A program made the position numbers and the translations under genes. The notes under the pieces are model-generated. The model was not told the origin of the DNA, searched no databases, and saw only the letters and a list, made by a program, of their open reading frames with translations. This document shows positions 8,712 through 60,202 of a DNA stretch of 64,000 nt, piece by piece. Every line of letters starts with the position of its first letter. The first letter of the stretch is position 1. The stretch comes from an archaeon (GTDB lineage Archaea; Nanobdellota; Nanobdellia; SCGC-AAA011-G17; GW2011-AR20): NCBI GenBank assembly GCA_002688355.1, contig NZCT01000024.1, positions 111,762 to 175,761 on the forward strand, in the 5' to 3' direction.

Positions 8712-10436
8712 TTATGATTTAATTTTATATAAATAAATTCCATTATTTGTTTCATATAAAATAGAATAATCTAATTCATGTTTACTTACAATATAATCTA
8801 TATTTTCAACATTTTCTACATCATCAATAACAATATTATCATTCATCCAAAAACCTATTATCGTAGAAGTCTGAAGTTCTGCATTACCACTGTAAATTGA
8901 TTCCTGTTGATTTTTATTTATAGGTCCATTATCTCTAACATCAAATAACACATTAGAAGTTTGATCTTTATCATATTCATTAAACCATTGACCTAATTTA
9001 GTTTGTTCACTATTAGTCCAATATATGTTATTATAAGAATAATTATATGCATAATTTGAAACACTTACAACTACAAAAAAGAAAACTAAGAAAACTAAAA
9101 CTTTCTTTAAATCAATATTCTTAATTAAATATTTAGCAAAGTAAATCAATCCTAAAAACACTGCTGTTAAAATTATCAAAGAAGGCCATGAAAAAAATCT
9201 CTCTACAATTAATTTTCCGTAAAAAAAATAATTAATAGCTAAATTTGAAAAACCGACCCAAGATAATGTTAAATTATTAGTCGGCAATAAAGCAATGAAT
9301 ATTATTTGAGAAGAAAATAATATGACTAAACTTGTAATAATTAAAGGATATTTTAAATTCTTCAAATAAAATTTATACAAAAAAATAACAATAAACGCAT
9401 TCAAAAATATCAAAGGTAAAACCATATCCGCATATCTTCCTATAATTTTACCAGAGAACCAAAAAAATAATGTCGGGAATATATTTAATCTTCCTGAATT
9501 ATGGTTAGCCATTATTACTAACGAAGATAAAATAGCAGAGAATGAAATTATTAAAAAGTAATTTATATTTGATTTCTTAAAAATGTTTTTAATTAACTTT
9601 AAGTTTAAAATAAAAGGGAAAAATCCTGTGCTAATAATTAAATAAGCAATATAGAAAATAAATAACGTTGCAAAAGATTCTAAACTATAAACTTTTGTAA
9701 ATGCAGTTGCCTCATAAACTTGAGGAGAAGCTAATACTCCATCTAATTTAAATCCAAAGTTTAAACCATTCCTAAAGATCCAAGGTAAACCAGCTAATGT
9801 TAATGTTAAAAAAACAACTGATCTTTTTTTAATTTCTAATTTTTTATTTAAAATTGCATAAATTAAAGCAGATAGTAAAAATGTTGGAATTAAAATTACT
9901 CCAATTAACCTTGTTAATATTGTTAACCCAATAAACAAACCTGCTAGAACATCAAACTTGTAATCTTTACTAATATAAGATTTATACAAAAAGTATATTG
10001 AAAATAAGAATAAAGTATAAAATAAATTTTCAGACATTATATACTGAGCAAAAGATAAATTTGTAGGAATTACAGAAACTAAAATTGCAAACAATAAAGA
10101 TTTTTTATCATTTAGAAATTCCTTTGCTAATAAAAAAGCTGGGAATATAATTAATGAAGACAATATTGAATTTATTACTTTAATAAAAAAGAAAACAACA
10201 GTCATATCTTTAAACAAATATGCTAATGAAATGAAAATTGGATACAAGGGAGGATTTTGATGTGAAGGTATTCCATGAATATCAAAAGTTCCAGAAGTAA
10301 TAAAACTCCTAGCCATTTCATTATAAACATAATAATCTGAATATGGTCCTGGAACGTCAATAAATGAAGATAAAAGTATTTTAACTATTACAAAAATAAT
10401 ATACAGTAAAATCAAGTATTTAGTTACTTTCTTCAT
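8712..10436 (-). CDS. Polytopic membrane protein, putative GT-C-fold glycosyltransferase (PMT/ArnT-like)
   Basis: At least 10 predicted hydrophobic helices over the first ~450 aa, then a ~120-aa soluble C-terminal domain. The architecture resembles dolichyl/undecaprenyl-phosphate-sugar-dependent GT-C transferases. No diagnostic catalytic motif was verified. Confidence 0.4.
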   Translation of the reverse strand: MKKVTKYLILLYIIFVIVKILLSSFIDVPGPYSDYYVYNEMARSFITSGTFDIHGIPSHQNPPLYPIFISLAYLFKDMTVVFFFIKVINSILSSLIIFPAFLLAKEFLNDKKSLLFAILVSVIPTNLSFAQYIMSENLFYTLFLFSIYFLYKSYISKDYKFDVLAGLFIGLTILTRLIGVILIPTFLLSALIYAILNKKLEIKKRSVVFLTLTLAGLPWIFRNGLNFGFKLDGVLASPQVYEATAFTKVYSLESFATLFIFYIAYLIISTGFFPFILNLKLIKNIFKKSNINYFLIISFSAILSSLVIMANHNSGRLNIFPTLFFWFSGKIIGRYADMVLPLIFLNAFIVIFLYKFYLKNLKYPLIITSLVILFSSQIIFIALLPTNNLTLSWVGFSNLAINYFFYGKLIVERFFSWPSLIILTAVFLGLIYFAKYLIKNIDLKKVLVFLVFFFVVVSVSNYAYNYSYNNIYWTNSEQTKLGQWFNEYDKDQTSNVLFDVRDNGPINKNQQESIYSGNAELQTSTIIGFWMNDNIVIDDVENVENIDYIVSKHELDYSILYETNNGIYLYKIKS

Positions 10437-10523: not shown

Positions 10524-11468
10524 ATGAAAAATCCAAAAGTCTTTGTAATGATTCCCTCATACAATGAGGAAAAATCTATTGGTAAAGTAATAAAAGAAAT
10601 AAAATTAGCTTCTAAAGATTATAAAATATTAGTAATAAATGATGGTAGTAGAGACAATACTGTTAAAGAAGCTAAAAAAGCAGGAGCACATTATATAATA
10701 GAAAATAAAAAAAATCTAGGTTTAGCTCCAAGTTTCAAAAAAGGCTTAGATGAATGTTTAAAATTAGGTGCAGATATTATTGTTAATACAGATGCTGATT
10801 TTCAATATAATCAAAAAGAAATTCCCAAAATAGTGAAACCAATAATAGATGAAAGAGCAGATGTTGTTCTAACTGATAGAAGAGTTTTACGGTTACGCCA
10901 TATGCCCTTCGGCAAAAAATATGGGAATACACTCTCTACGTTCGTAACAAGAATAGTTTCAGGCTATCCTGTAAGAGATGCACAAAGTGGTTTTAGGGGT
11001 TTTTCAAGGGAAGCTGCTCTAAGACTAAATGTTCTTTCGGATTATACCTATGTTCAAGAAACAATCATGCAAGCTGTTGATAAAAGATTAAAAATAATCC
11101 AAATACCTTGTGAATTTAGAAAAAGAGCTGGTAAAAGTAGACTGATAAGCAATGTATTTAATTACGCAAAAAGAGCTGGTTTAACTATTGTAAAAAATTA
11201 CGTGCATTACAAACCATTAAGAGCGTTATTAACTCTATCATCATTACCGTTAACTCTAGGGTTTCTATTAGGTCTAAGATTTTTATATTTCTTTTCTCAA
11301 GGAGATAATGGTCATGTGCAATCATTAATACTATCTGCTATATTATTAATCATAGGATTCCAAATTGTTGTTCTAGCATTTATTGCAAATTCAGTAGGAG
11401 CTAATAGAAAAATAATTGAAGAAATTCTATATTTAAAAAAGAAGAAAGAATTCTCAAAAAATGAATAA
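10524..11468 (+). CDS. Glycosyltransferase family 2, dolichol-phosphate-sugar synthase-like (DPM1/GtrB-like) with C-terminal membrane anchor
   Basis: VFVMIPSYNEEKSIGKVI...INDGSRDNT...VNTDADFQY (GT-A DXD region) and two C-terminal hydrophobic helices, as in GtrB/DPM1. Confidence 0.7.
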   Translation: MKNPKVFVMIPSYNEEKSIGKVIKEIKLASKDYKILVINDGSRDNTVKEAKKAGAHYIIENKKNLGLAPSFKKGLDECLKLGADIIVNTDADFQYNQKEIPKIVKPIIDERADVVLTDRRVLRLRHMPFGKKYGNTLSTFVTRIVSGYPVRDAQSGFRGFSREAALRLNVLSDYTYVQETIMQAVDKRLKIIQIPCEFRKRAGKSRLISNVFNYAKRAGLTIVKNYVHYKPLRALLTLSSLPLTLGFLLGLRFLYFFSQGDNGHVQSLILSAILLIIGFQIVVLAFIANSVGANRKIIEEILYLKKKKEFSKNE

Positions 11469-12129
11469 AGATTACAAAGAGATGAGGAAAAAAAGTGGAC
11501 ACGAACATCTAATCTCATTATTCTACAGACCATTAACAGAAAGAATAACAAAAGTGTTACTAAAGACTCCAGTTACACCAAATCAACTTACAACCTTAGA
11601 GATACTTATGGCACTTTTAACTGGCTTCTTTTTTGCTTTAGGCGAATGGAAGTTTCTAATCATAGGTGCAATATTAGCACAATTCTCTTTGATATTTGAT
11701 CTTCTTGATGGTCAAGTAGCTAGATACAAAAAACTAAGAACCATGTTTGGTAGTTTTTATGATAAAATAGCTAACAAGATAATGAAATACTTAATGTTCT
11801 TGGGAGCAACAATAGGAGTTTATAGAATGACAGGCAGTACTATATTTTTAGTTATTGGTGCAATTGCCATTTTTAACATTACAATGATTTCATTTATTAC
11901 TCATGTAAGGCATCTTCAAGGTTATTCAAGAAATATTTCTGAACTACCAAGATCAAAAAAATACTTTATTCCTTTTGGAATGTTAACTGTAGTCGCAATA
12001 TCAGTATTCGCATTATTTAATATTTTAGACGTTTACTTATTTTTATTTGCTACTCTAGGAACATTAGCTTGGATAAAACAACTTTTCACACAATATAAAA
12101 TAGGAAAAGATATACCTAAGACTGATTAA
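11461..12129 (+). CDS. CDP-alcohol phosphatidyltransferase-family membrane protein
   Basis: DLLDGQVARYKKLRTMFGSFYDKIAN approximates the D-G-x2-A-R...G-x3-D-x3-D signature (the last Asp is replaced by Asn). The protein has multiple TM helices. The ORF overlaps the upstream GT2 gene by 8 bp. Confidence 0.5.
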   Translation: MNKDYKEMRKKSGHEHLISLFYRPLTERITKVLLKTPVTPNQLTTLEILMALLTGFFFALGEWKFLIIGAILAQFSLIFDLLDGQVARYKKLRTMFGSFYDKIANKIMKYLMFLGATIGVYRMTGSTIFLVIGAIAIFNITMISFITHVRHLQGYSRNISELPRSKKYFIPFGMLTVVAISVFALFNILDVYLFLFATLGTLAWIKQLFTQYKIGKDIPKTD

Positions 12130-13714: not shown

Positions 13715-15541
13715 ATGTCAAAGAAATTATTAATTATAAATATAGATGAAAACACAAATGAAGCAAGTTCTATAATAGATAGAACAAACCAAAAAGATCT
13801 AGAAATATTATATTTAAATAATAATATCATAAACAAATCTATAAAACATAAAATATTAGATGATTTATTCAAGCCAGAATATGCTACAAAGATAGATATT
13901 GAAGCAAGAAATATAGTAAAAAAATGGTATAAACCATTTGAAAGTAAACTAAAGTACTTTGGATTAATTCTACCCCAATTAATAGAGAATAACTTTCTAA
14001 TGATGTGGTGGATTCTCTTAAAAATAGAAATAATGAAAAAATTAATTGATAGTGAAAAACCAGCTGAAATAGAAATAATAACAGAATATAAAGAAGATAT
14101 ACACATAATAGAAGAGCTAATAAAAAACAAAGAAACAAAATTCAATCATCATTTATTAAGTAAAGGGACAAAAATCCTACCAAAAGAGATATTTAAAAAA
14201 TTTTCAATTAAAGCAATTTCACACCTACAAAATATCCTATTTAAACTTAAATCTAATAAAAATAATAAAAATAATATATTAGTTCTAAGCAATTTAAGAC
14301 AATCACTTCCTTTATTAAAAGAATTAAAAAAGAATAAGAATAATGTAATCATAAGGGCTGGAGAAAATATTGGAAGATCATTATTTAACAAATATTGCGA
14401 TTATTACATAACTTTTAATGAATATTCAACTCCAAGGATAGCCAGAAAATTAAAATCTATAGAAAAAATATTACATCAGAAATATGATAACATAAAAAAA
14501 GATAAAAAATACCAAAAAGATCTTTTTTACCACATACCCTTATTTAAAGTTCTAGAAAAATATTTAACAAAAATATTCTTAGAGGATTTTAAAAATCTAA
14601 TCAAATACATAGAAATTACAAAAAATATTAAATCAAAAATAGATATAGTTGTAACTCATAATGATATAATTGCTTTTGAAAAAACAGTTGTTCAAACTGC
14701 AAACAAATTAAATATACCAACTGTAACAATGGTTGAAGGTTTCTTATCTAAAAGTAAAATAAGTAAAAATAATACTTTCGTTCCTTTCTCTTCTCAAAAA
14801 ATGGCATTGCATTCTGAAGATTTAAAAAATTTCATAATTAAAAATTACAAAATACCTAAAGAAAGATTAGTAGTTACAGGACATCCTATGTTTGATCATT
14901 ACAAAAATGAAAAACCAGCTTCAAAAGAATCTGTACATGAATTATATAATATTCCTAAAGATAAAAAAATAATTCTATATTCTGCTGAAAAATATAATAA
15001 TGATAACAAATATCAAAGTTCAATTTGGTCTGCTTACACAAAAAAACAATATTTAAGCATATATGAAGAATTATTCAAAGCAATTAAAAATAATTCAGAT
15101 GCATTTCTAATAATTAAAAAGCACCCCTCAGAAATAATGGATGGTTCTATAATTGATAATATTGCTAAAAAAGAAAAAGTAGATAATTTTATTACAATAA
15201 AACAAGCAAACTTACATGATCTAATAAATGCATCAAGTATTGTAATTGTTAGATTATCCACAATTGGATTAGAATCAATGATACTCGACAAACCAGTAGT
15301 AATAATGGACACATATTTTGACACAAATGATAATGTTGGTTACACAGAGTTTAATGCATCATTACATGCAAAAAAACCAGGAGAATTAGGAAAAATCTTA
15401 AAAAACTTATTACATGATAAAGAATTACAAAATAAATTATCAAAAAATATAAAGAAATTCATCAATTGTAATTATCCAATAAATGATGGATCTGCATCTA
15501 AGAAAATGTCAAACTTAATTAAAAATATGATCAAAAAATAA
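13715..15541 (+). CDS. Large protein with C-terminal TagF/TagB-like CDP-alcohol (glycerophospho)transferase domain
   Basis: C-terminal VVTGHPMFDHY...KDKKIILYSAEKYNND...IIKKHPSE resembles the VTGYPRND / ILYAPTWR / HP motifs of CDP-glycerol glycerophosphotransferases. The N-terminal ~300 aa is lysine-rich and of unknown function. Confidence 0.45.
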   Translation: MSKKLLIINIDENTNEASSIIDRTNQKDLEILYLNNNIINKSIKHKILDDLFKPEYATKIDIEARNIVKKWYKPFESKLKYFGLILPQLIENNFLMMWWILLKIEIMKKLIDSEKPAEIEIITEYKEDIHIIEELIKNKETKFNHHLLSKGTKILPKEIFKKFSIKAISHLQNILFKLKSNKNNKNNILVLSNLRQSLPLLKELKKNKNNVIIRAGENIGRSLFNKYCDYYITFNEYSTPRIARKLKSIEKILHQKYDNIKKDKKYQKDLFYHIPLFKVLEKYLTKIFLEDFKNLIKYIEITKNIKSKIDIVVTHNDIIAFEKTVVQTANKLNIPTVTMVEGFLSKSKISKNNTFVPFSSQKMALHSEDLKNFIIKNYKIPKERLVVTGHPMFDHYKNEKPASKESVHELYNIPKDKKIILYSAEKYNNDNKYQSSIWSAYTKKQYLSIYEELFKAIKNNSDAFLIIKKHPSEIMDGSIIDNIAKKEKVDNFITIKQANLHDLINASSIVIVRLSTIGLESMILDKPVVIMDTYFDTNDNVGYTEFNASLHAKKPGELGKILKNLLHDKELQNKLSKNIKKFINCNYPINDGSASKKMSNLIKNMIKK

Positions 15542-17598: not shown

Positions 17599-17599
17599 A

Positions 17600-24217: not shown

Positions 24218-26340
24218 GCAAAAGTAGATGTATGAAAAACATGATCTTCCATTTTAGTTTCATATTTCTCTTCAGAAGATTCAACTTGATAAAATAAATC
24301 GCTTATTCTCATATATTCACTCATTTTCCTTAAAGTAAAATTCAAATTAACATTCTTAAATTGATTAATATTACTGTTCAAAGCTTCAACTTGATCATTA
24401 GGTAAATAAAATTTATAATTAATCTTTCCAGCATATTCGTGTAAATTTTTATGATAAGAATCTCGTTTCCATTTTAGCACATCAAAATCAAATTCATTAT
24501 GCTTTTCTATTTCAATTTTAAATTCCTTTTCAATATCTAAACCACTAAAATTAACTCTTAACATGCTTTCAAATTTAATAATATTATCCACAGCAGTTTC
24601 ATAATCTAAAGAAGGACTTTTCTTAGAAATTAATTCTTTAGCTATCTTTCCTAAGTAAATATCAAATTCATTTGGACAATCAGTTATAGTCTTAAAAGTA
24701 TATTGGAAATTTAACTTGCCAAATCCGCCATTCTTTAACTTTTCAAATTCTTCCTCTTTACTATAATGTTCTATTAATTCTTCTTTTGTATCAAACCATT
24801 CTCCCCTAGAGTCGTTATCAAACTCTTTTAATAATTTTTGAACTTCCTTAGGAGCGTTTTCAATATTTTCCATTACAGCAATTAAAAAATCCATAGGATT
24901 AATATCATAAGATTGAATATATTTTAACAAACCCCTATAGTATTTATAATTCCAAGTAAATTGAACTAACCATTGTAATTTCCTAAAGAAAAACAATTCT
25001 TCTTCTGACATATGTTTAGTCGACTTAACCATTTCTTCATATTCAAAAGATTTATACCCACCGTAAGTACCAAAACAAGTATCTATTAATCTAAACTTAG
25101 TCTTAATACCATTTCTTTCCCTATACTCAGGAAGAGACATCTCAGCTCCATTTAACAACCTACAATGATAAACAATTATCTGTCCAGCATCCATATCCAT
25201 TAACTCTCTTAACGCGTTTAAATGACTCTCCTTAGTCTCAAAAGGCATTCCTAGCACCATTTCAGCATCTGAATCAATACCATTATCATGAAAAAAAGTT
25301 AGTAATTCCTTATATGCATCTTGACTAATATTATCTCTTCTAATTTCCTTTAAGGTTTCTAAATTCATAGATTGTAATGACGCATCAACACTTGCTAGCT
25401 CCCCCAACATAGTTGCAATTTTCTTTATCCCATCACTTTTATTCTTAGCCCAAAATGTTGTAACTTTCCTCGGGTAACTGTGTTTATCACTTAATTCCCT
25501 CATTATCTTAGAAAATTCATAATCCCTCTCACTAAAGATTCCAAAATTAGAATCAGAAATACACAATATGTTAGTATTCTTTGTTTCTTCTACTTTTTTA
25601 GCAATATAATAAAACTCTTCTTTTATTCTATCAAATGGAAACATAGCCATCTTCTGATAATCTAAATCTCCCCATACGCAAAAAGTACAAGGATATGGAC
25701 ATCCTCTATTTGTTTCTAAATTAGGAATTAAATTATCCTCAAAAAATTCATCCATTACTCCAGTTAAATACGGAGAAGGTATAACACTAAGATCTTTAAT
25801 TACAGGAGTTTCTTCTCCTCTAATAACTTCATCTTTTTCTTTATCATAATATGCAGTATCTTTTATTACACTTTTTTTCATAAGATTAATGTCTTTATTA
25901 CACTCAAAATATTTCTCTAAAAGATTAACAAATCCAGGTTCTCCTTTATGAATTACATAAAAATCTAAATTATTTTGTTTTTGTAAATAATCTTTTATTA
26001 AATCTGGTCTTATGTGTATATTCGGTCCACCCATTACAGTCATTATTTCAGGATGTTTACTTTTTACATATTTTAACAAATTAATATTTAAATTCTCATT
26101 CCAAGCATAATTACTCAATCCAAGAATATCAGGAGGATTTTTCTCAATCTCTTCTAATAATTTATCTGGGTATTTAAATAATTTAACTGTTAGTTTATCG
26201 CCATAAATTTTATTCAGATATGCTTTAATATATCCAATATTAATTGGAAACATAAAAGGACCTTTACCAACATAATTATGTACAAGATCAGCAAAATAAA
26301 TTACAGTATTTTCTTTTTTAGATTGATTATTCATATTCAA
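24211..26340 (-). CDS. B12-binding domain / radical SAM protein (class B), 709 aa with a long C-terminal extension
   Basis: N-terminal B12-binding-like region (ILGLSNYAWN...TVMGGPNIHI), radical SAM motif TNRGCPYPCTFCVWG, and ~250 aa of additional C-terminal sequence. Confidence 0.7.
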   Translation of the reverse strand: MNMNNQSKKENTVIYFADLVHNYVGKGPFMFPINIGYIKAYLNKIYGDKLTVKLFKYPDKLLEEIEKNPPDILGLSNYAWNENLNINLLKYVKSKHPEIMTVMGGPNIHIRPDLIKDYLQKQNNLDFYVIHKGEPGFVNLLEKYFECNKDINLMKKSVIKDTAYYDKEKDEVIRGEETPVIKDLSVIPSPYLTGVMDEFFEDNLIPNLETNRGCPYPCTFCVWGDLDYQKMAMFPFDRIKEEFYYIAKKVEETKNTNILCISDSNFGIFSERDYEFSKIMRELSDKHSYPRKVTTFWAKNKSDGIKKIATMLGELASVDASLQSMNLETLKEIRRDNISQDAYKELLTFFHDNGIDSDAEMVLGMPFETKESHLNALRELMDMDAGQIIVYHCRLLNGAEMSLPEYRERNGIKTKFRLIDTCFGTYGGYKSFEYEEMVKSTKHMSEEELFFFRKLQWLVQFTWNYKYYRGLLKYIQSYDINPMDFLIAVMENIENAPKEVQKLLKEFDNDSRGEWFDTKEELIEHYSKEEEFEKLKNGGFGKLNFQYTFKTITDCPNEFDIYLGKIAKELISKKSPSLDYETAVDNIIKFESMLRVNFSGLDIEKEFKIEIEKHNEFDFDVLKWKRDSYHKNLHEYAGKINYKFYLPNDQVEALNSNINQFKNVNLNFTLRKMSEYMRISDLFYQVESSEEKYETKMEDHVFHTSTFAQ

Positions 26341-26358: not shown

Positions 26359-27405
26359 TTAAACCTTATCCCAAGTTATTCCTTCATCTTCTTTTATATC
26401 TCTCTTAGCTTCTCTTCCTACTATAACATCTAAATATCTAGGATGTAATCCTTCTAAAGATCTTTTCCTCCCAACCATATAATCTTCTATTTTAGTTCCC
26501 ATGGGAATATCAATATTTGCTACAATTCTCCTTCTTCCAGATTGCATAGCATAAATCTCTTCTCCAGTTATTTTCCTAACCTCTGATCCAAGAGATAATC
26601 TAACTTCCTTAATACCATCTGTCATTTCCTTTAACTCAATAGGATCTACAGAAATAGGATGATCAGGTGCACCTTTAATATTCTTATCAATTGTAAAATG
26701 TTTTTCAATTAACTTAGCACCCAAAACAGAAGCTGCAATCGGAATATGAATTCCTAAAGTATGATCAGAAAGTCCAACAGGTTGTTCAGGAAAAACTTTT
26801 TGTAAAGTTTGCATAAATTTAACATTAGCCTGATCTGCTGGAGTAGGATATATAACCATACAATGCAATATAATAACATCGTTATTTCCTTCATTCTTAA
26901 TAGCATTAACAGCTTCTTCAACTTCTCCAATATTACCCATTCCAACAGAAAGTATAATTGGTTTATTTTTCTTAGCAATATATCTCAAAAAAGGAATATT
27001 TGTTAAATCAGTGGAAGCAATTTTATACGCAGGAACCTCTAACTCTTCTAAAAAATCTACACTTTCTTCATCAAAAGGAGTAGATAAAAAAACAATATTT
27101 TTTTCTTTACAATAACTTACTAATTCTTTCCACTCATCTTTGCTTAAATCGTCCTGAGTTTCATATAAACTACTTTGCGTAGTTCCTTCAGCATTCTTTT
27201 CCCAAAATCTAGGAACTGTTTTAGTAACTAATTTACTTGAAGTAAATGTTTGAAATTTAATTGCGTCAGCACCACCTTCAGCAGCTTTTTCTATTAATTG
27301 CTTACCTCTCTCAAGAATACAATCATGATTGCATCCTGCTTCGGCAATTACATAAGTAGGATTATCTCCTCCAATAGATTTTTCCCCTATTTTTATTTCC
27401 CTCAT
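26359..27405 (-). CDS. N-acetylneuraminate/pseudaminate/legionaminate synthase family (NeuB-like) with C-terminal SAF domain
   Basis: MREIKIGEKSIGGDNPTYVIAEAGCNHD (NeuB N-terminal signature), TIM-barrel core, and C-terminal antifreeze-like SAF segment ANIDIPMGTKIEDYM. Confidence 0.8.
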   Translation of the reverse strand: MREIKIGEKSIGGDNPTYVIAEAGCNHDCILERGKQLIEKAAEGGADAIKFQTFTSSKLVTKTVPRFWEKNAEGTTQSSLYETQDDLSKDEWKELVSYCKEKNIVFLSTPFDEESVDFLEELEVPAYKIASTDLTNIPFLRYIAKKNKPIILSVGMGNIGEVEEAVNAIKNEGNNDVIILHCMVIYPTPADQANVKFMQTLQKVFPEQPVGLSDHTLGIHIPIAASVLGAKLIEKHFTIDKNIKGAPDHPISVDPIELKEMTDGIKEVRLSLGSEVRKITGEEIYAMQSGRRRIVANIDIPMGTKIEDYMVGRKRSLEGLHPRYLDVIVGREAKRDIKEDEGITWDKV

Positions 27406-27437
27406 AGAAAAAATATCAAAGAAATAAATATTTAAAG

Positions 27438-28421
27438 CTATTCATTAAAATTACGCTTAACTATATCTACAACTCTATCTAGTCCTTTACCATCAACTAA
27501 TTCTTGTCCCTTTTTATTCATTTTTTCTCGTAAATTATAATCACTATTTAATTTATTTACTTCATTTCTCAACTCTTCTTCTAAGATTTTAGTTCCCAAT
27601 CCTAAATAAACACTTGTTCCAAATTCAACAAATAATTTGTTTCTATTATCCTCTAATTCATTCTGCGCTAAAACTAATATAGGTAATCCAGTTGCAGCAC
27701 ATTCAAAACTTGTATATCCCCCCGAAACAATACCCACGTCTGCGTTTAACATTAATTTAGATAAATCACTTAACCCTTCATGTAGATTAACATTCTCATA
27801 ATCAGAGTTTATCTTTTCTAGTTCATTTTTATATTTAAAATTAGGAACCATAACAATATCTAATTCTAAATTAGAATCCTTCAAAGCATTAACAGTCTTT
27901 AATGTTAAGCTATTCAAATCTGAACCTCCAAAACAAACAAAAATTCTTTTATTCTCTTTATTCAAAATTCTTTTAGGTAGATTTTTATAAGAATCACTCA
28001 ATAAAGCATATTTAGGCCCATAGTAATATTCTTTTCTAGAGCCAGGATATAAAGAATTAATAACAACATTAGCAATGTTTCTAGTGTCAGTTTCTTGAGA
28101 ATGCTCCATATTTATAATAAAAATATTATTCTCTTTTAACAATTCCATATACGCCTTATTAGCATATAATAAATCATTAAAAACAACATTAGGGTTATAT
28201 TCCTTAATCAATTCAATTTGGCTTTTAATATCATCAAAATCAACTTCTTTAACATTATATCCTCTATCTTTAACAACATTCATACCTAACTTTGATTCTG
28301 AAGACATAACAAATAAAACTTCAATTTCGTCTTTGATTTTGTCAGCAATTCTCAAAGGGGTAAAAGTATGGCCCATTCCAACTTTATTATTCCCTTCTAC
28401 TCTAAAAACTATTCTTTTCAT
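27438..28421 (-). CDS. PseG-like UDP-sugar hydrolase (GT-B-like, pseudaminic acid pathway)
   Basis: MKRIVFRVEGNNKVGMGHTFTPLRIADKI matches the PseG N-terminal GxGHxxR motif. The size is 327 aa. Confidence 0.55.
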   Translation of the reverse strand: MKRIVFRVEGNNKVGMGHTFTPLRIADKIKDEIEVLFVMSSESKLGMNVVKDRGYNVKEVDFDDIKSQIELIKEYNPNVVFNDLLYANKAYMELLKENNIFIINMEHSQETDTRNIANVVINSLYPGSRKEYYYGPKYALLSDSYKNLPKRILNKENKRIFVCFGGSDLNSLTLKTVNALKDSNLELDIVMVPNFKYKNELEKINSDYENVNLHEGLSDLSKLMLNADVGIVSGGYTSFECAATGLPILVLAQNELEDNRNKLFVEFGTSVYLGLGTKILEEELRNEVNKLNSDYNLREKMNKKGQELVDGKGLDRVVDIVKRNFNE

Positions 28422-29403: not shown

Positions 29404-30663
29404 TTATTTGTAAGTTAACCCTCCAACTTTTACTTCATCTTTAAATTTTTTCAATAATTCTCTTAACTGATCTTCATTAAGGTTACTATGATCAATATTA
29501 ACATAATACTCCCCGCCTTTACCAACTTGAAAATATTTACTCCAATCAGAGTTTTCTGGTTTCATAATTTGTATACCATATTTTTCAGGATCTTCCCACA
29601 AAGGAGTACTTGGATAAGGTGTTAAAATATAAGCATCAGCATATTCCAAATTTAAACTTCTAGCAAAATTAATTGTATCTATAGCCGTCTCCCAAGTTTC
29701 TCCAGGCAAACCAATAATAAAAAATCCTTTAACTTTAATACCTGCTTTATGACACATTTCAACACCTTTTCTTTGTATATCCACTGTCATATACTTCTCC
29801 ATTTTTTTTAATACTTCATCATTTCCACTTTCCAATCCTAAACTTACAATATCGCAACCAGCATTTCTTATACTATAACATAGTTCTTGTGTCAATAAAT
29901 TAGCTCTCGTAGTACATCTCCAAGTGATATCTTTTTTAGGGAAATTTTCTGTAATCAGATTACATAGTTTTAAAACCCTATCAAATTTAAATGTGAAAAT
30001 ATCATCTCCAAAATAAAATCCCCTTATATCAAATTTATCATATAACAATCTCATCTCTTTAATAATATTCTCTGGGCTTCTTGCTCTCCATTTTTTAATT
30101 TTAGCAGATCCACAATAAACACAACTAAAGACACATCCTCTTGAGGTAACCATAACAACAGCCTTCTTACCATTTAAATCCATATCATATTTTCCCATGT
30201 TAAGATTATCATAATCTGGGAAGGGCAGTGCATCTAAATCTTCAATAGGTTTAGAAATAATAAGTTTAGTTTCATCACCTCCCAAAATTTTTTTAATAGC
30301 TTCTTCTCCATCGCCAACAACTAAATGATCAAAAGTTTCGTTACTAGTTTTTTCAGTAGGCATATCTGTAATATGATTACCTCCTGCAATTAATTTTATA
30401 TTTGGATACAATTCTCTTATTTTTTTAGCTAGTTTTATACAATCAAAATAATTTGGTGTTGAAACACTAAAACAAACATAATCATAATTATTCTTTAAAT
30501 TTTCAAATAAATATTCTTCATTATCATGATTTAAATCAATTAACTTAGAATTATAACCTAATTTTTTACAATAAGAATCCAATAAAGCTAATCCTAATGG
30601 CAATCTATCTCCTTTTTTATCTAAAAACTTATCTTCAGGATTAACAAATAAAATTGATTTCAT
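29404..30663 (-). CDS. B12-binding domain / radical SAM protein (class B), immediately downstream of pepM
   Basis: N-terminal B12-like domain ([11 protein letters not shown]) and [14 protein letters not shown] (CxxxCxxC). Its stop abuts the next ORF and its start overlaps the pepM fusion gene by 4 bp. Confidence 0.75.
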
Positions 30664-31979
30664 TTTTCTTTTATCATCCCATTCCCATCAGGGATTAAAT
30701 TAATTACTTGTTTTATTGGCATACACAAATCTTCAACTTCATGTGCCCTTTCATTTCTTAAAATAGATTCTGAAACTTTAACCATTGCTGGATACGCTGA
30801 CCTAAGTAAATGATTTGCATAGATTACCATATTAATTCCGTTATCAGCGAGTTCTTTTTCTGTTATATGTGAATATGTTGAAGGCACAACAACCAATGGA
30901 ACTTTATTTTCAAATTCTTTATACTTTTGACAAAATTCTTTAATTTCATCAAAGCTCTTTTCCTTACTATGTATCATTATAGCATCAGCTCCAGCTTCAA
31001 TATATGCCTTAGCTCTCCTTAACGCATCATCCATACCTTTCTTTAGAATCAGACTTTCAATTCTTGCTATAATCATAAAATCTTCTGTTACTTGTGCTTG
31101 TTTACCAAATTTTATTTTATTTGAAAAATCTTCTATTGTATCTTGAGTCTGCTCTACATCAGTTCCATATAAAGAATTTTTCTTTGAGCCAATTTTATCT
31201 TCTATTATAACAGCAGAAATTCCTAATCTCTCCAAAGATTTAACTGTAAAAATAAAATGTTCTGCTAATCCTCCACTATCACCATCTACAACTATTGGTT
31301 TTGTAGTAACTTCCAAAATCTGTTCAATAGTATTTATCCTTGATGTAACGTCAACAGTTGCAGTGTCTGGTTTTCCTTTTGATGTTGAATCAGTTAAACT
31401 GCTTTCCCATATTCCATCAAATTCTCTTAGCTCTCCATTATCTAAAGTAATATTAGTTTTTTCAGCTATTAAACCAGTTAAACCATTATGAGCTTCTAAA
31501 ATTCTTACAATTGGTTTTGCAGCCAATAATCTTCTTAATTTGTTTTTTCTAAGTTCAGGAGTAGTTCCCATTTCCATCATATTTTGTATTAAATCTGTTG
31601 TAGAAACATCTCTTGTGTATTCAGGTTCGATTAATTTTCCACCCCATTCTTTCATTGCTTCAACAATATCATCTCTTTTACCTTTTTGAATTCCAGTCCT
31701 CCAATCCGTACCGTGAACCATGAAATCTGCTTTTAATTTTCTAACATTAGGAACATAATCCCATGTTTCTTGAGGAATAACTTCCTTAACACCTTTTAAA
31801 TTTTCTACAACAACTTTTCTTTGTTCAAAAGTTAAAAAAGGAAGCCTCTTATAATTCGCAATAGCTTTATCTGTAAGTAAACCGACAGTTACATCTCCTA
31901 ATTTTCTCGCTTCTTTAATTATATTAAGATGACCATGATGAACTGAATCACCACTCATTGGAACATATACAATTGTCAT
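30660..31979 (-). CDS. Cytidylyltransferase-phosphoenolpyruvate phosphomutase fusion (Fom1-like CyTase-PepM)
   Basis: N-terminal [21 protein letters not shown] (HxGH nucleotidyltransferase motif, GCT/TagD-like). From ~residue 135: [27 protein letters not shown] and [16 protein letters not shown], which are PEP mutase/isocitrate-lyase superfamily signatures including the EDK motif. Confidence 0.75.
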
Positions 31980-31993
31980 TTTATTCCTCCTTG

Positions 31994-33352
31994 TTAATCA
32001 AACCACTTTTTTGTTTCATTTGCAACTCTCTCTCCACTAGGAAGATATGATAATTCTTTTTGTGTAGAAAGATTTATTGCTCCAGATATACCTAAAGTTG
32101 CAATTCTTCCATTTTCTTCTCCATTATTTGAAAAAGCATGTCTAATAAATGGTTGAATATACATTGAATCTCCTTTACGTAAAATATCATTAAAAGTTTC
32201 TCCATTATGAATCCAACTAAAATCTAAATCAGAATCTCCATAATTATAAACATAAGTATGTAATGAATTATAAAATCCATTTTCAAGATTTTTTTCTTTA
32301 GAAAGAACTTCTATCTCAAAACCTTTCATAAAAGGCATTTTAGAACTTCTAGCTAAAGGATGTAATCTATAATTTTTATTCTCTGCATTAGGATAAAAAT
32401 ATCCTTCTTCTTCATCTTTACGTTTTACTACAACAACTTCTTCATTTGGTTTATAGTCAGGAATCATTAAATCACTAATTTCAATATTTAACACATTAGC
32501 AATTTTCTGTAAATCCTCAAAAGACTTATCTTGATTTTCATCTAAAATTCTATCATCTATTGTTCCATCTAAATCTCTTAAACTTTCTAAAGAAATTCTT
32601 TCATTATCCATATGTTGTTTGATTAATTGACTAACTGCTTTGTTATGATTTCTATAATCTAATGTAAATCCTTCAATAGCTCTTTCACCTAACGCATAAA
32701 ATTCTTTTTGTGCTCTACTTATATCCCCTCCAAATGTAACAGCAATAATAAGAGCTTCGTCTTCTTTACTTCTATTAGTAAAACTATGTGGCCAAAAAGG
32801 TGTTATATAATTAGAATCACCAGTATTCATCTCTTCACAATATCTTTTCCCATTCACTTCATAATAAAAATTAACAGGGCCAATAAAAAAAGTCATTTGA
32901 TGCATAAAATGTCCATTATTATAAGCTACATCAAGATTATTTGGATCACTATTCTCAACATATCTTAATTCTTTAATCCATTCTGGTTTAAAACCACTTA
33001 GCTTTGACATTGCTGTATCTCTATAATCATAATAATCTGTTCTTTCTCCAGTTTTATCTTTTCTATCAAATATTCTACTTGTTTCTTTAGATTCTTCTTC
33101 TCTCATTATTCTTACACCATTTTTACAATCATCTTCTATAAGGTGCAAATCAGAAACATCAATAGGATAACTTAAGCCAATCTTATTTATCAATTCATAT
33201 GTTTCCTCCTTTTTACAATCCCCAGATAATATTGAATTTAGTTTTCCAGCATCCATTCCAACCTCTGTAGCACAAGCTTCTGGAGTTCTCTTTAAATCAT
33301 TTAATTCACTTAATATTCTTGAACCAACTAATTTTAAAAAATCGTCTGTCAT
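31994..33352 (-). CDS. HEPD/MPnS/HppE-family non-heme-iron bicupin oxygenase; candidate methylphosphonate synthase-like enzyme
   Basis: 452 aa with an N-terminal HTH-like segment and cupin core [22 protein letters not shown]...ITPFWPHSF. By direct count the motif residues are H148, Q152, F162, I183 and H189, a 2-His-1-Gln pattern. The gene lies inside the pepM-ppd-adh operon. Confidence 0.6.
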
Positions 33353-34171: not shown

Positions 34172-35317
34172 TTACATTTCTATCGTACTTAGAATTACAT
34201 TAACATCTTCTTCTGTTGGAACTTCAATACTATTAAACATTCTTTCTGGCGTGAAACCTTCTTTTGTTATTATAGATTTATCGTCAATTTTTGCATCTTT
34301 TAAAGTTAAAGGAGCACCTATTTGGGATTTTAAAGATTGGATACTATCATATAAAATTTCGAAATGATTTTTATTAATCGAAGGGAATATATATTCAACA
34401 AGACCATTTAATTTTTTTCTCACTAAATCAGATCTATCATAGTTAAATTTCAAAATTTCTGGTAAAGTCAAAGCGCAAGCAAACCCATGTTCTAAATCAA
34501 AATGAGCTGTCATTGGATAAGAAAGTGAATGTGCAGGACCTGTAGTTGTCCTACTTATAGCTATACCAGACCATAAACTCGCATACATCATTCTTTCTCT
34601 AAATTTAACTTCGTTAGGGTATTTATAGGTTTTTTCTAAATAACCAAATACTTCAGCTATATTAGTTGGAATAAAATTATCAGTTAAAGAGTTAGAATTT
34701 TTATTAAAATAAGCTTCAAATAATTGAGTCAACGCATCTAATCCAGTTGCTGCAGTGATTTTCCCAGGTAAAGATAAAGTTAATTCAGAATCTAAAATAG
34801 CATAATCAGGACTAACTATATATTTTTCAGGGCCTCCAAAAGATTGTTTCCTTTTATCTTTATAAAAAACAGAAAAAGGTGTAACTTCTGAGCCAGTACC
34901 AGCAGTAGTAGGGATAGCTACAAAAGGGACTTGTTTCTCTTTTATTTTACCTTGAGTAAAGTCTCCATTAAAACCCAAAATTGAAGTATCATTTCTATAA
35001 ACACAAGAAATAATTTTTCCAATATCCATCACAGCACCACCACCTGCACCTATGACCATATCAGAATCATATTCTATCAATTTTTCTAAAGCGTCTTGAA
35101 CTCCTTCAAGTGTTGGAGAACCTTCAACATTATTATAAACAAAAACATCTCTACCATCTAACAAATTTTTCGTTACATCTAAAAATCCTGATTTTTCAAA
35201 AGAATTCTTTCCAGTAACAAGAAATATTCTTTTTGCATCATGTTCTTGAATTATTTCTTTTAATTGATAAAGTCCATTTTCATTGCATATTTTTGTTGGA
35301 ATATTAAAATATTTCAC
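34172..35317 (-). CDS. Iron-containing (group III) alcohol dehydrogenase; candidate phosphonoacetaldehyde reductase
   Basis: GAGGGAVMDIGK glycine-rich Fe-ADH motif, with His-containing metal-site region HSLSYPMTAHFDLEHG. Its position between ppd and pepM matches the FomC/PhpC arrangement. Confidence 0.7.
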   Translation of the reverse strand: MKYFNIPTKICNENGLYQLKEIIQEHDAKRIFLVTGKNSFEKSGFLDVTKNLLDGRDVFVYNNVEGSPTLEGVQDALEKLIEYDSDMVIGAGGGAVMDIGKIISCVYRNDTSILGFNGDFTQGKIKEKQVPFVAIPTTAGTGSEVTPFSVFYKDKRKQSFGGPEKYIVSPDYAILDSELTLSLPGKITAATGLDALTQLFEAYFNKNSNSLTDNFIPTNIAEVFGYLEKTYKYPNEVKFRERMMYASLWSGIAISRTTTGPAHSLSYPMTAHFDLEHGFACALTLPEILKFNYDRSDLVRKKLNGLVEYIFPSINKNHFEILYDSIQSLKSQIGAPLTLKDAKIDDKSIITKEGFTPERMFNSIEVPTEEDVNVILSTIEM

Positions 35318-36378
35318 TTTATTGCTTCCATAAATCTCTTAGTTATTTCTTCAGGTAATAATTCAATTCTCTCAATATCTTCTAGATTGCCTTTCTTAAC
35401 ATTAACTAATAAAAAATTAGGGCCATCCAATTCCAATAATTCTTTAATAACCTTTTCTAAATTCTCCTTATCATTAACTTTTCTAGAGTTTGTATATCCA
35501 CAAGCTAAAGCAATATCTTTAATCTCAGTTGTATTTGATGTAGTTCTTTGTCCTCCTGTAGAAGACCAAGATTCATTATCTAAACAAATATGTAAAAAAT
35601 TCTTAGGTTTAATATTTCCAATTGTAGATAAAACTCCAAGATGCATTAAAGCAGCACCATCACCATCTAAAACAATTATTTTCTCTTTAACTTCTTTAGC
35701 AATACCCAATCCAATAGATGAAGCATGACCCATTGAACCAATAACATAAAAATTTTTAGGAGCATCATCCGCTTTATTTAACTCTCTTGAGATCATTCCA
35801 GTAGTAGAAATTCTAATCATATCTTTTGTATTATTTGCTATTAATTCTACAGCGTCATATCTAGACATTTCGTAATTTGTTTTATGTTGAGATTCATATT
35901 TTTCTATAAATTCAGGATTAACAATTAAAGCTACTGTACTTGTATTTTCCAATTCATCATTAGCCCATTTAATATCATCAAAAGATTCTAAAACTTTAGA
36001 TTTAATATTAGCTAATTCTAAAAACTCTTTAGTATTCTCCCCCATATACCAATGTTCAGGAGCATCTTTTTTATTAGCAGGATTACCTCTCCATCCAACT
36101 AATAATAAACTTTTAGTGTTGTACAAATTATTCAAAGAAGTTTGAGGGTTAATTAAATTCCCAATACCAGCATTTTGCATCATTACAACAGGTTTTTTCC
36201 CAGTTAAATAAGAACCAGCACCTCTTGAAAAAGCTAAACCTTCATTAACATCAGGAATATATTCATTTTTCAAAGTATCTAAATAATTAAAAAATCCACC
36301 AAATGAAGAATCAGCAACACCCATAAAAGGACCAAAATTATATTTTTTCAATTCTTGATACAATTCTTCAGGTTTCAT
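35314..36378 (-). CDS. Phosphonopyruvate decarboxylase-like thiamine-diphosphate enzyme
   Basis: TPP-binding motif GSMGHASSIGLGIAKEVKEKIIVLDGDGAALMHLG (GDG...N). The 354-aa size and gene context with pepM support the call. Confidence 0.7.
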   Translation of the reverse strand: MKPEELYQELKKYNFGPFMGVADSSFGGFFNYLDTLKNEYIPDVNEGLAFSRGAGSYLTGKKPVVMMQNAGIGNLINPQTSLNNLYNTKSLLLVGWRGNPANKKDAPEHWYMGENTKEFLELANIKSKVLESFDDIKWANDELENTSTVALIVNPEFIEKYESQHKTNYEMSRYDAVELIANNTKDMIRISTTGMISRELNKADDAPKNFYVIGSMGHASSIGLGIAKEVKEKIIVLDGDGAALMHLGVLSTIGNIKPKNFLHICLDNESWSSTGGQRTTSNTTEIKDIALACGYTNSRKVNDKENLEKVIKELLELDGPNFLLVNVKKGNLEDIERIELLPEEITKRFMEAIK

Positions 36379-36390
36379 ATAGTTTTTTAG

Positions 36391-37149
36391 ATGGAAATGT
36401 TTAAAAGTTTATTCCATAAATGTCTACAAATGGTAGAGTCAATTAAAAAACTAAGAGAAATTTGCCAAAAACCTGTAACTTTTAATTCATTTTATCAAAG
36501 AATAATGGCAAGAAGATTTTCCATTTACTTAGTATGGTTATTAATTCCTTTCAAAGTTTCTGGCAATCTAGCATCTTTCTTAATGTTATTAACTGGAATA
36601 ACTGCATCAATATTTTTTACAGTCGGAAGTTACTGGTTTTACGTTATCGGAACTTTACTTTTACAGTTATGGTTTGTCCTAGATCACGCAGATGGTGAAT
36701 TAGCACGTTACTGGAAAAAAGCATCTACAAAAGGTATTTTCATCGATAAACTAACTCACCATATTGTCCATCCATTAATTTTCTTAGGATTAAGTATTGG
36801 ATTATACAAACAATTTAACAATCCTATAATGTTAATCTTAGGTGCCTTTACAGCATATTTTCTATTACTTCAAGATCTAATAAACATAGATAAAGTTGAA
36901 GCCATTAGAATAGCTTCTAAAATTAAAACTAAAAATAACAAAGAAGAAAAATTAACTCTAAAAAATTCTTTATTTACAAAAGTTACTTCTGTAGTTTACA
37001 AAATACCAGGTTTAATGAACATAGTAACAATTTCAGCTATTTTAAACATATTACACTTTACATTTTTCTTTTATGCAGTAACATTTCCAATAATGATATT
37101 ACTAAAATTAATTTACAATTTAAAAATTCCAGAGGAACAATTTAAATGA
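36391..37149 (+). CDS. CDP-alcohol phosphatidyltransferase-family membrane protein
   Basis: FVLDHADGELARYWKKASTKGIFIDKLTHH approximates D-G-x2-A-R...G-x3-D. It has several TM helices and is divergently oriented from ppd with a 12-bp gap. Confidence 0.5.
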   Translation: MEMFKSLFHKCLQMVESIKKLREICQKPVTFNSFYQRIMARRFSIYLVWLLIPFKVSGNLASFLMLLTGITASIFFTVGSYWFYVIGTLLLQLWFVLDHADGELARYWKKASTKGIFIDKLTHHIVHPLIFLGLSIGLYKQFNNPIMLILGAFTAYFLLLQDLINIDKVEAIRIASKIKTKNNKEEKLTLKNSLFTKVTSVVYKIPGLMNIVTISAILNILHFTFFFYAVTFPIMILLKLIYNLKIPEEQFK

Positions 37150-37658
37150 AAACCTTAGATTTAGGTTGTGGACATCATAAAGTAAAAGGAGCATTTGGTG
37201 TAGATTTTATTAAATTACCAGGAGTTGATTTTGTCTGGGATTTGAACAAAACATTACCAAAAGAATTTCATAATGAATACGATGTAGTTTACTCAAATGG
37301 TGTAATTGATCATCTTGGAAATCCTCTAAATTTTTTAGAAGGATGTAAAAAATACCTAAAGAAAGATGGGAAACTAATAACTATTGTCGATAACGGAGAT
37401 TATTGGAGATATCACTTACATCTAGGAAATTATCACGCGGACTTGTGGGAAAAAGATTTTCCAGATCATCCTGAAACACATCATAAAATGTTATTTCAAA
37501 TGAAACACATAGAAAAAATATTAAAATTATTAGATTTTAAAGTAACAAATAAAAAATACATAAGACTAACAGGAACTTGGAAAGATTATCATATAGATTA
37601 TTTATTGCCAAAATTTATTGGCTGTAATTTCATGAAAATAGAAGCTATAAAAAATTAA
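37146..37658 (+). CDS. Putative SAM-dependent methyltransferase
   Basis: MKTLDLGCGHHKVKGAFGVD (motif I, LDLGCG). Confidence 0.45.
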   Translation: MKTLDLGCGHHKVKGAFGVDFIKLPGVDFVWDLNKTLPKEFHNEYDVVYSNGVIDHLGNPLNFLEGCKKYLKKDGKLITIVDNGDYWRYHLHLGNYHADLWEKDFPDHPETHHKMLFQMKHIEKILKLLDFKVTNKKYIRLTGTWKDYHIDYLLPKFIGCNFMKIEAIKN

Positions 37659-56521: not shown

Positions 56522-56668
56522 TGAACACACCTCCATGTGTTTTCCCACGTAGGGATTCGATTTTTATTATTTATTAACATTAGCCAGATAGTATTAACCT
56601 AACTCCTATGTTATCAAGTTAAAATAAAATCTGATTTATAAACATTTCTCTACTAAAACATATATGAA

Positions 56669-57673: not shown

Positions 57674-57679
57674 TTTTTC

Positions 57680-59048: not shown

Positions 59049-59123
59049 AATTTAAGAATATTAATTTTATTTATATAATTATTGAATTTCCTACATTATA
59101 CTATAACACACAATTACATTACA

Positions 59124-60126: not shown

Positions 60127-60202
60127 TTTACGTTATAATATAACATATATTTACATTATAGTATAATGTAACAATTTATAAAGATTTGGTTTTTAAAAAA
60201 AT

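Follow-up and report, generated by a model that had tools for sequence, protein, structure and literature searches.

A 64,000-nucleotide stretch of an archaeal contig (NZCT01000024.1, assembly GCA_002688355.1, positions 111,762 to 175,761; the whole stretch is called the window here) carries two open reading frames, ORF A and ORF B, for membrane proteins of the CDP-alcohol phosphotransferase (CDP-OH-PT) family, and beside ORF A an operon for methylphosphonate (MPn) synthesis. Both proteins have lost the fourth aspartate of the family signature (D4), and the genes that surround their orthologues make them good candidates for the transfer of phosphonate groups to a membrane-embedded acceptor. 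Aerobic methane production draws on the methylphosphonate and 2-hydroxyethylphosphonate (2-HEP) esters of marine dissolved organic matter. No enzyme is known to join these phosphonates to cell material, and the surface tailoring that follows cytidylylation has been described as almost unknown (PMC6697681, PMC9381506). The locus offers two short candidate membrane transferases (222-239 aa) near an apparently complete MPn pathway.

Two variant CDP-alcohol phosphotransferases

36430..37149, plus strand: ORF A, His-variant CDP-alcohol phosphotransferase, 239 aa, PF01066, start as in its homologues
11461..12129, plus strand: ORF B, Asn-variant CDP-alcohol phosphotransferase, 222 aa, PF01066
36379..36429, no strand: divergent intergenic region between ppd and ORF A, 51 bp, read from the sequence

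Both proteins exceed the gathering score of Pfam PF01066 (CDP-OH_P_transf; 22 bits), with 31.4 bits (E 2.9e-7) for A and 57.8 bits (E 2.2e-15) for B in the Pfam scan, and AlphaFold (AF2) models of both (pLDDT 83 and 81, respectively) have an all-helical polytopic fold in which the signature lies on two adjacent transmembrane helices after an interfacial helix. AF2299 of Archaeoglobus fulgidus is the top Foldseek match of both models, with a TM-score of 0.65 for A and 0.78 for B (rmsd 2.3 Å), followed in both cases by IPCT-DIPPS and bacterial PIP synthases; by sequence, AF2299 aligns with B at 52 bits across 184 residues. A preliminary description of this DNA, made from the sequence alone, had called the pair polytopic CDP-OH-PT-family proteins, and this is borne out by the reading frames, the Pfam scores, and the AF2299-like models. 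Within the family, both belong to the AF2299/DIPPS branch as divergent enzymes.

ORF A can be read from its first ATG at 36391 (36391..37149, plus strand, 252 aa), but that start is rejected, since 19/19 homologues begin at M14 (MVESIKKLREICQKP) and the NCBI annotation does the same in its 239-aa model, a 100% identical hypothetical protein (CL617_03640, archaeon). Because all homologues and the NCBI model begin there, the alignments place the true start most likely at 36430.

The motif of ORF A is DHADGELARYWKKASTKGIFIDKLTH, or in the numbering of the 252-aa frame D98-x2-D101-G-E-L-A-R-x8-G115-x3-D119-x3-H123; that of ORF B is DLLDGQVARYKKLRTMFGSFYDKIAN. Each keeps D-x2-D-G-x2-A-R-x8-G-x3-D and replaces the last Asp alone, thus matching seven of the eight conserved positions of the full family signature (D1-x2-D2-G-x2-A-R-x7,8-G-x3-D3-x3-D4), with an 8-residue spacer. 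On their motifs A and B class as family homologues with a variant signature and not as canonical members. Replacement of the final Asp in both had been proposed before, with Asn in one protein and Thr or His in the other; Asn in B and His in A stand, as these occupy the D4 column of AF2299 in the HMMER alignment, while the Thr of A is the preceding residue. A profile-profile comparison of the A and B families (hhalign; probability 99.8%, E 2e-30) likewise sets His opposite Asn.

His123 is invariant in 20 homologues of ORF A, at identities down to 27%, together with D98, D101, G102, E103, A105, R106, Y107, G115, and D119. Searched with a profile, 1.84 billion representative proteins yielded at least 616 clusters of the A family at E ≤ 1e-30; among its best 150 representatives the motif DG-E-x-AR-Y occurs in 123, and D4 is His in 118 and Asp in only 3 of the 139 motifs that could be read. 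ORF B homologues (50-65% identity) have Asn at D4 in 12 of 13 cases and Ala in the other, with D1, D2, G, A, R, G, and D3 all conserved; more distant relatives have Asp or His. By these alignments the D4 substitutions are conserved and not drift, and ORF A is placed in a large, uncharacterized His-variant family. Such a branch within a textbook family of lipid synthesis calls into question the assumed essentiality of the fourth Asp. The sole domain fusion found in the A family is a metagenomic protein (P0278, 814 aa) with the A-family domain at the C-terminus of GINT1_N (glucosamine inositolphosphorylceramide transferase, N-terminal); it may be taken as a single hint of a glycolipid-related acceptor, and says little.

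The phosphonate operon

35314..36378, minus strand: Ppd, phosphonopyruvate decarboxylase, first gene of the operon; TIGR03297 331.5 bits, cut-off 312.5
34172..35317, minus strand: Fe-ADH (iron-dependent alcohol dehydrogenase), likely phosphonoacetaldehyde reductase making 2-HEP; Fe-ADH 132.7 bits
33349..34128, minus strand: LicC/PntC-like nucleotidyltransferase; NTP_transferase and NTP_transf_3 matches
31994..33352, minus strand: methylphosphonate synthase (MPnS)-type cupin, 452 aa; match to 6b9s
30660..31979, minus strand: cytidylyltransferase-phosphoenolpyruvate mutase (PepM) fusion, Fom1 domain order; TIGR02320 408 bits, above cut-off
29404..30663, minus strand: B12-binding radical S-adenosylmethionine (SAM) enzyme adjoining PepM; B12-binding and Radical_SAM matches

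ORF A is divergent from ppd, as had been noted, at a distance of 51 bp and not the 12 bp first given. A TTTAAAA element in this gap (36400-36406), 22-24 bp from both start codons, may be a shared archaeal TATA box, a reading that stays a suggestion since the window has a GC content of just 28%.

The cupin is closer to the MPnS of N. maritimus (6b9s, 315.6 bits) than to HEPD (6b9r, 224.5 bits), and it keeps the equivalents of H148, Q152, F162, I184, and H190, the final two of the discriminating positions being Tyr and Gly in HEPD. With the diagnostic Gln, Phe, and Ile in place, it groups with MPnS. In the MPnS structure these residues are the iron site of 2-His-1-Gln type and a Phe/Ile pair by which the Gln is held in place. 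The dehydrogenase scores 192 bits against the Phn_Fe-ADH model, below its cut-off, and its position in the operon fits a reductase role. As first described, two genes are of cytidylyltransferase type: the cytidylyltransferase (CyTase) domain of Fom1 (5x3d) matches the N-terminal part of the PepM fusion at 170.5 bits, and the best PDB match of the separate nucleotidyltransferase is LicC (1jyk, 59.5 bits). In Streptomyces, Fom1, Fom2, and FomC jointly make 2-HEP-CMP (PMC8158854). The LicC-like gene overlaps that of the cupin by 4 bp, and in the metagenomic proteins P0072 (708 aa) and P0075 (711 aa) the two are fused; the existence of such fusions suggests that MPn itself may be nucleotidylated.

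Judged by its gene content, the operon is a complete MPn pathway with two nucleotidyltransferases, and CMP-activated phosphonates are very likely made at this locus. Given the Fom1-type domain of the PepM fusion and the overlap and fusion of the LicC-like gene with MPnS, 2-HEP-CMP and CMP-methylphosphonate are both plausible donors. By analogy with Fom3, the B12-binding radical SAM enzyme may modify a phosphonate; it reaches no specific family, neither the Fom3 nor the PhpK type being assignable. Homologues of the cupin at 53-56% identity carry the labels Nanoarchaeota and Pacearchaeota, and the window thus places an MPnS-type pathway in DPANN-like archaea. The archaeal MPnS carriers of a marine survey were Thaumarchaeota and one Crenarchaeota archaeon (PMC9381506), and the literature searched held no paper linking methylphosphonate to DPANN-like lineages; no paper in a full-text search brought together methylphosphonate synthase and CDP-alcohol.

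Genomic context of ORF A and its family

37146..37658, plus strand: small SAM-dependent methyltransferase; Methyltransf_23 41.5 bits
37655..38626, minus strand: family 2 glycosyltransferase (GT2) with hydrophobic C-terminus, partner of A; Glycos_transf_2 87 bits
38656..40218, plus strand: polysaccharide deacetylase family protein; Polysacc_deac_1 34.2 bits

The closest relatives of ORF A in species-representative genomes are labeled Woesearchaeota (66% identity) and Nanoarchaeota (63%), and we take the host, whose DNA has 28% GC and an S-layer gene in the window, to be a marine DPANN-like archaeon. The 239-aa product itself (P0001) matched no recorded contig. In every close orthologue with flanking sequence, namely the window and the comparison loci L001/L002, L006, and L007, ppd is divergent from A at 51-71 bp, and A is followed by the methyltransferase, the GT2, and then, where the contig extends, the deacetylase. 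The stop codon of ORF A overlaps the methyltransferase start by 4 bp (ATGA). The methyltransferase is conserved beside A in L001, L007, and L010, the GT2 (best NCBIfam match PgaC/IcaA, 69 bits, far under cut-off) in L001, L006, L007, and L010, and the deacetylase (homologues at 592-625 bits) in L006, L007, and L010 along with the rest of this module. At L010 these neighbors are highly conserved (291-625 bits), while identity to A drops to 37% in the A-like gene, whose spacer counts 14 residues, and phosphonate genes are absent, a combination that fits a view in which A follows the donor and its neighbors define the acceptor.

An Omnitrophota bacterium has an A-type gene (36% identical) within one co-directional run that reads PepM (nucleotidyltransferase-fused), Ppd, A, GT2, methyltransferase, second CDP-OH-PT, PMT_2 (a GT-C enzyme), and LPG_synthase_TM. 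This run unites the modules of A and B, which are more than 20 kb apart in the window. More widely, a scan of species-representative genomes gave 290 relatives, the best 80 of which were kept as species-level loci, and PepM or Ppd lies within the flanks covered at 12 of the 80, a lower bound, with only 39 loci having at least 5 kb on both sides. The 12 fall into at least 7 separate clades of a neighbor-joining tree, with H, S, E, or an unreadable residue at D4. PepM is carried by only ~4% of bacterial genomes and 1.6% of archaeal ones (PMC8942020); roughly estimated, far fewer than one such locus would be expected by chance among 80. His at D4 was considered as a mark of phosphonate-linked members and is refuted as such by its dominance throughout the A family; members linked to PepM have H, S, E, or N at this position, and the bacterial Group 1 proteins discussed below have D. 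A LicC-like nucleotidyltransferase lies within 1.8 kb at 16 of the 80 loci, and at L033 it follows a glycerol-3-phosphate dehydrogenase gene, which fits soluble CDP-X donors. From its gene neighborhoods the A family looks like a set of transferases for soluble CDP-activated head groups, phosphonates being one recurrent class of donor.

Metagenome-assembled genomes (MAGs) of Bacillota (L052, L062, L066) have PepM-Ppd clusters with two tandem A-family genes, with a 13-residue spacer and His at D4, and a single A-family copy is seen on the short contig of L070 (Cyclobacteriaceae). In Actinomycetota MAGs (L055, L060, L063, L075, L076, L083, L084) a conserved pair of CDP-OH-PT genes ~1.1 kb apart encodes one protein with canonical D4 and one with His (DGEIARW...GVFLDRVGH), with no PepM nearby.

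Genomic context of ORF B

10524..11468, plus strand: GT2, polyprenyl-phosphate sugar synthase-like (AglJ/ArnC/GtrB-like), two C-terminal transmembrane segments; Glycos_transf_2 83.9 bits
12116..13093, minus strand: LPG_synthase_TM/flippase-like membrane protein; PF03706 99.4 bits; convergent with B, 14-bp overlap
8712..10436, minus strand: GT-C-type polytopic glycosyltransferase (PMT_2, ArnT-like); PMT_2 39.1 bits

The start of ORF B overlaps the stop of its GT2 by 8 bp. Such an overlap had been reported with the GT2 likened to dolichyl-phosphate sugar synthases; the overlap is confirmed, and the likeness holds at scores below all cut-offs (AglJ 111 bits, ArnC 51 bits, and a dolichyl-phosphate hexose transferase match). 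The convergent membrane protein scores 43.6 bits against the TIGR00374 flippase-like domain (cut-off 43.2).

Close homologues of B, compared by context at 53-58% identity and with Asn kept, repeat this arrangement, the convergent PF03706 partner being found in the window, L090, L091, and L092. In L090 the order is B, convergent LPG_synthase_TM, cytidylyltransferase-PepM (70% identical to that of the window), Fe-ADH, and Ppd, and in L091 a GT2-B-LPG_synthase_TM group, its GT2 69% identical to that beside ORF B, stands next to a cytidylyltransferase, an MPnS-type cupin, and a cytidylyltransferase-PepM fusion. L092 and L003 have B with LPG_synthase_TM and sulfate-activation genes, LPG_synthase_TM lying ~6 kb from B in L003. 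The GT-C enzyme has a 285-bit homologue in L090, and a PMT_2 gene adjoins a second CDP-OH-PT in L005. Because L090 and L091 place B next to PepM, the phosphonate operon of this group lies beside the A module or beside the B module, depending on the genome.

Comparison with known systems

The association of a CDP-OH-PT with phosphonate genes is a known concept. 'Burkholderiales_CDP-OH' or Group 1 clusters contain a CDP-alcohol phosphatidyltransferase, an HpnL-like LPG_synthase_TM protein, PepM, Ppd, an aminoethylphosphonate (AEP) transaminase, and two cytidylyltransferases (PMC8942020), and are predicted to make phosphonolipids in Burkholderiales (PMC8942020) and Nostoc (PMC5987646), although no product has been characterized (PMC8942020). 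Features not part of that concept are the absence of D4 from A and B alike, the large His-variant family, the link to MPnS rather than 2-AEP, and the DPANN-like host, all of them new here. Like Group 1, A in the window has a nucleotidyltransferase-fused PepM, Ppd, and a second cytidylyltransferase, as does B in L090 and L091, and B has the LPG_synthase_TM partner, whereas A is without such an adjacent partner in the window. Unlike the system described here, Group 1 is bacterial, and its Cupriavidus and Roseomonas proteins are ~27-35% identical over part of A and branch separately in the neighbor-joining tree; its AEP transaminase and 2-oxoglutarate oxygenase (2-AEP or 1-hydroxy-AEP) stand in place of the Fe-ADH and MPnS cupin of the window, which has no AEP transaminase.

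Two clusters with CDP-OH-PT and PepM appear among plasmid records, from Roseomonas marmotae and Cupriavidus, which are among the six plasmid matches of ORF A and are the best of them. Their proteins keep the canonical D4 (DLASD and DLVSD); the Roseomonas gene is divergent from its phosphonate operon, like A. In that cluster (L089; plasmid p1318-3, 13956-30399) the CDP-OH-PT gene is divergent from AEP transaminase, LPG_synthase_TM, Ppd, and PepM, and a hopanoid cluster (hpnC, hpnD, hpnE, shc, hpnH) adjoins it; the acceptor there may be a hopanoid. A PepM match on a Burkholderia stagnalis plasmid (H20) was ruled out as a CDP-OH cluster on inspection. On plasmids, the PepM nearest to that of the window (60% identical, with the same fusion) precedes genes for Ppd, a reductase, and LicD.

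AF2299 (4o6m, 4o6n, 4q7c) and the DIPP synthase domain of IPCT-DIPPS (4mnd) are the best matches of A and B in sequence and fold, sharing the DG-E-x-AR core and a juxtamembrane N-terminal helix. DIPPS in addition uses a soluble CDP-alcohol donor from an attached cytidylyltransferase, the same logic as proposed for A and B. They differ in a canonical fourth Asp, in an identity to A and B of just ~17-23%, and in that neither is linked to phosphonates; the large N-terminal cytoplasmic domain of AF2299 is missing from A and B. The eukaryotic choline/ethanolamine phosphotransferases CHPT1 and CEPT1 (8ero, 8gyw, 9uet) belong to the same superfamily and likewise transfer CDP-activated head groups, from soluble donors, onto the hydroxyl of a lipid, but their fold match is weak (Foldseek E 0.05-0.8, TM-score ~0.4-0.6), and they have 10 transmembrane helices and a canonical motif.

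The LicD and TagF families, phosphotransferases known from phosphonoglycan and teichoic acid pathways, take the same slot of the pathway, moving a CMP- or CDP-activated head group to an acceptor hydroxyl, but have unrelated folds and are not polytopic CDP-OH-PT proteins. Since LicD, sulfatase-family, TagF-like, or CDP-OH-PT proteins are found depending on the cluster, the transferase slot is by gene content filled by different families across lineages. The window has one TagF-like gene:

13715..15541, plus strand: TagF-like protein (Glyphos_transf, CDP-glycerol-type phosphotransferase); PF04464 57.7 bits

Among window ORFs of at least 120 aa there is no match to LicD or a sulfatase-family transferase, and the transferase candidates of the window are accordingly A, B, and the TagF-like protein. 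The genes around A and B (GtrB/ArnC-like GT2, deacetylase-family, flippase-like, GT-C) also resemble the three-component Arn (ArnC/ArnD/ArnEF/ArnT) and Gtr (GtrA/GtrB/GT-C) systems, which glycosylate by way of a lipid carrier. These differ in having no CDP-alcohol phosphotransferase, and the resemblance is one of gene content only, all scores lying below equivalog cut-offs.

Proposed function and alternatives

Given their homology and the linkage of their orthologues to PepM and Ppd, the favored reading is that A and/or B transfer the phosphonyl group from a CMP-phosphonate, to which we give a probability of about 0.5; any particular acceptor is much less likely than that. The donor would be 2-HEP-CMP from the Fom1-like domain or CMP-methylphosphonate from the LicC-like enzyme, bound at the site formed by the conserved D1, D2, D3, G, A, and R, with D1-D3 holding the metals and the anhydride. 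At the cytoplasmic face of the membrane the phosphonyl group would pass to a hydroxyl of a membrane-embedded acceptor with release of CMP. His123 of ORF A might take the role of D4 as a ligand of metal 2 or as general base, and the Asn of ORF B might serve as ligand or hydrogen-bond donor only. Because the gene content resembles the Arn and Gtr lipid-carrier systems, the acceptor could be a lipid or a polyprenyl-phosphate-linked sugar built by the partner GT2. Export and onward transfer of the product would fall to the flippase-like LPG_synthase_TM protein and the GT-C enzyme, the final result being a phosphonate-decorated S-layer or surface glycoconjugate.

One specific form of this proposal, that A and B load MPn or 2-HEP onto polyprenyl phosphate or a GT2-made polyprenyl-phosphate sugar, which LPG_synthase_TM flips and whose load the GT-C enzyme passes to S-layer or surface glycans outside the cell, so that A and B make no end product themselves, is speculative and, as a whole, improbable. 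It has the attraction that loss of the Asp base would make sense, since the nucleophile of a carrier could be an already anionic phosphate oxygen. If true, it would amount to an extracytoplasmic lipid-carrier route of phosphonate decoration and would explain by concrete enzymes where the MPn and HEP esters in high-molecular-weight marine organic matter come from, with DPANN archaea as an overlooked source.

Several observations weigh against phosphonyl transfer by A and B. At 68 of the 80 A-family loci neither PepM nor Ppd is found in the flanks covered, and the family as a whole is consequently not phosphonate-specific. The fourth Asp coordinates metal 2 and is the presumed catalytic base (PMC6506517), and it is missing from both proteins; N, S, T, E, L, G, P, C, and Y also occur at this position in the A family, and with D4 both lost and variable its chemistry may differ from the textbook reaction. 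The Asn of ORF B is unable to act as a base. ORF B is ~17 kb away from the operon in the window, and, with a single large glycan island spanning the entire region, proximity alone counts for less here. A homologue of the TagF-like protein (55% identical) lies inside the phosphonate operon of L001 (5253-7076), and four MPnS clusters of other organisms have sulfatase-family or TagF-like genes instead of a PF01066 gene. The earlier designation of A and B as prime candidates for phosphonate transfer is thus upheld in part, favored by strong synteny and tempered by the breadth of the family and by the TagF-like rival.

The best-surviving alternative, tentative in itself and clearly less probable than phosphonyl transfer, has ordinary CDP-alcohols, CDP-glycerol for example, as the donors of A and B, which would add a phospho-alcohol to a lipid or lipid-linked glycan of the same surface polymer, the phosphonate being attached by another enzyme, most likely the TagF-like protein. 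Most A-family loci are without PepM, and many have just a neighboring cytidylyltransferase, in one case with glycerol-3-phosphate dehydrogenase; the window itself has a further cytidylyltransferase (CTP_transf_3, 18309-19043). TagF-like genes are moreover equally linked to the pathway, lying inside or beside the MPnS/PepM operons of L001, L093, and L096, in the latter two as Glyphos_transf genes adjoining MPnS operons next to Fe-ADH. This account has difficulty with the strict divergence of A from ppd in all close orthologues, with a PepM linkage that recurs in at least 7 clades of the A family and in the B clade, with the contiguous and co-directional PepM-Ppd-A run of Omnitrophota, and with L090, where no TagF-like gene lies between B and PepM.

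Within phosphonyl transfer itself, a sub-case is a true phosphonolipid, in which the CMP-phosphonate would react with a free hydroxyl of archaeol or diacylglycerol, as in choline/ethanolamine phosphotransferases, and the product would stay in the membrane. In eukaryotes that make phosphonolipids, the choline/ethanolamine phosphotransferases accept CMP-aminoethylphosphonate. The CDP-OH-PT/PepM clusters of Burkholderiales, Nostoc, and Roseomonas are predicted to make such lipids (PMC8942020, PMC5987646), and B is always paired with a protein that has an MprF-type lipid-flippase-like domain. The context is mainly one of glycan genes, however (GT2, GT-C, deacetylase, a nonulosonic acid pathway, and an S-layer gene), the window holds no lipid-core biosynthesis gene, and even the Burkholderiales group has yielded no characterized phosphonolipid (PMC8942020). 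The sub-case is therefore doubtful. The host speaks against it as well, as DPANN archaea are not generally known to synthesize lipids of their own.

Less probable still is that one of the proteins, most plausibly B, is catalytically dead and serves as a non-enzymatic subunit or scaffold for the GT2, flippase-like, and GT-C machinery. The loss of the presumed base and metal-2 ligand (PMC6506517), with an Asn that cannot abstract a proton, speaks for it, but the conservation of D1, D2, G, A, R, G, and D3 among B homologues argues for a working nucleotide and metal site, and the Asn is itself conserved rather than drifting.

That A and B are canonical archaeal head-group synthases (archaetidylinositol-phosphate, archaetidylserine, or archaetidylglycerol-phosphate) lying in the island by chance is very improbable and such an identity is ruled out for practical purposes, for although archaetidylinositol phosphate (AIP) synthase and PIP synthase are their best NCBIfam names, the equivalog models at curated cut-offs give scores far too low (NF040950, A 37.7 and B 62.8 bits, cut-off 180; NF045883, 25.5 and 55.2 bits, cut-off 170; PgsA TIGR00560, B 26 bits, cut-off 109; DIPPS, 32 and 55 bits, cut-off 580), D4 is lost, and in the contexts examined the orthologues lie among phosphonate, sulfate-activation, and glycan genes, never beside lipid genes, an outcome contrary to the one that the preliminary description had named as speaking against its own proposal.

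Other genes of the glycan island

The island holds further genes of varied kind. Three B12-binding radical SAM genes (6853-8292, 24211-26340, and 29404-30663), one KedN5-like and one the neighbor of PepM described above, are accompanied by a SPASM radical SAM gene (22700-24217), and homologues of the B12-binding type are found near A-family genes without PepM too (14 of the 80 loci). An adenosine 5'-phosphosulfate (APS) kinase gene lies at 13139-13663; its counterparts recur by A- and B-type genes in L003, L092, L095, and at 13 of the 80 genome loci, sometimes with ATP sulfurylase, and this recurrence suggests that the same surface polymer may also be sulfated.

Directly downstream of the phosphonate operon are nonulosonic acid genes (NeuB and PseG-like, 26359-28421), and an S-layer protein gene (S_layer_C) is present at 54272-56548. 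An unexpected set in the middle of the island is formed by three genes like ATP-citrate lyase or citryl-CoA synthetase plus lyase (15543-18331; ATP-grasp_2/Citrate_bind, CoA_binding/Ligase_CoA, and a C-terminal half Citrate_synt), directly followed by the CTP_transf_3 gene already mentioned, which is KdsB/NeuA-like. Toward the end of the window the minus-strand ORFs of 56775-63871 have almost no Pfam match, including none at all for the 1222-aa ORF at 60203-63871; the exception is a Polbeta/NTP_transf_2 nucleotidyltransferase at 59124-59735.

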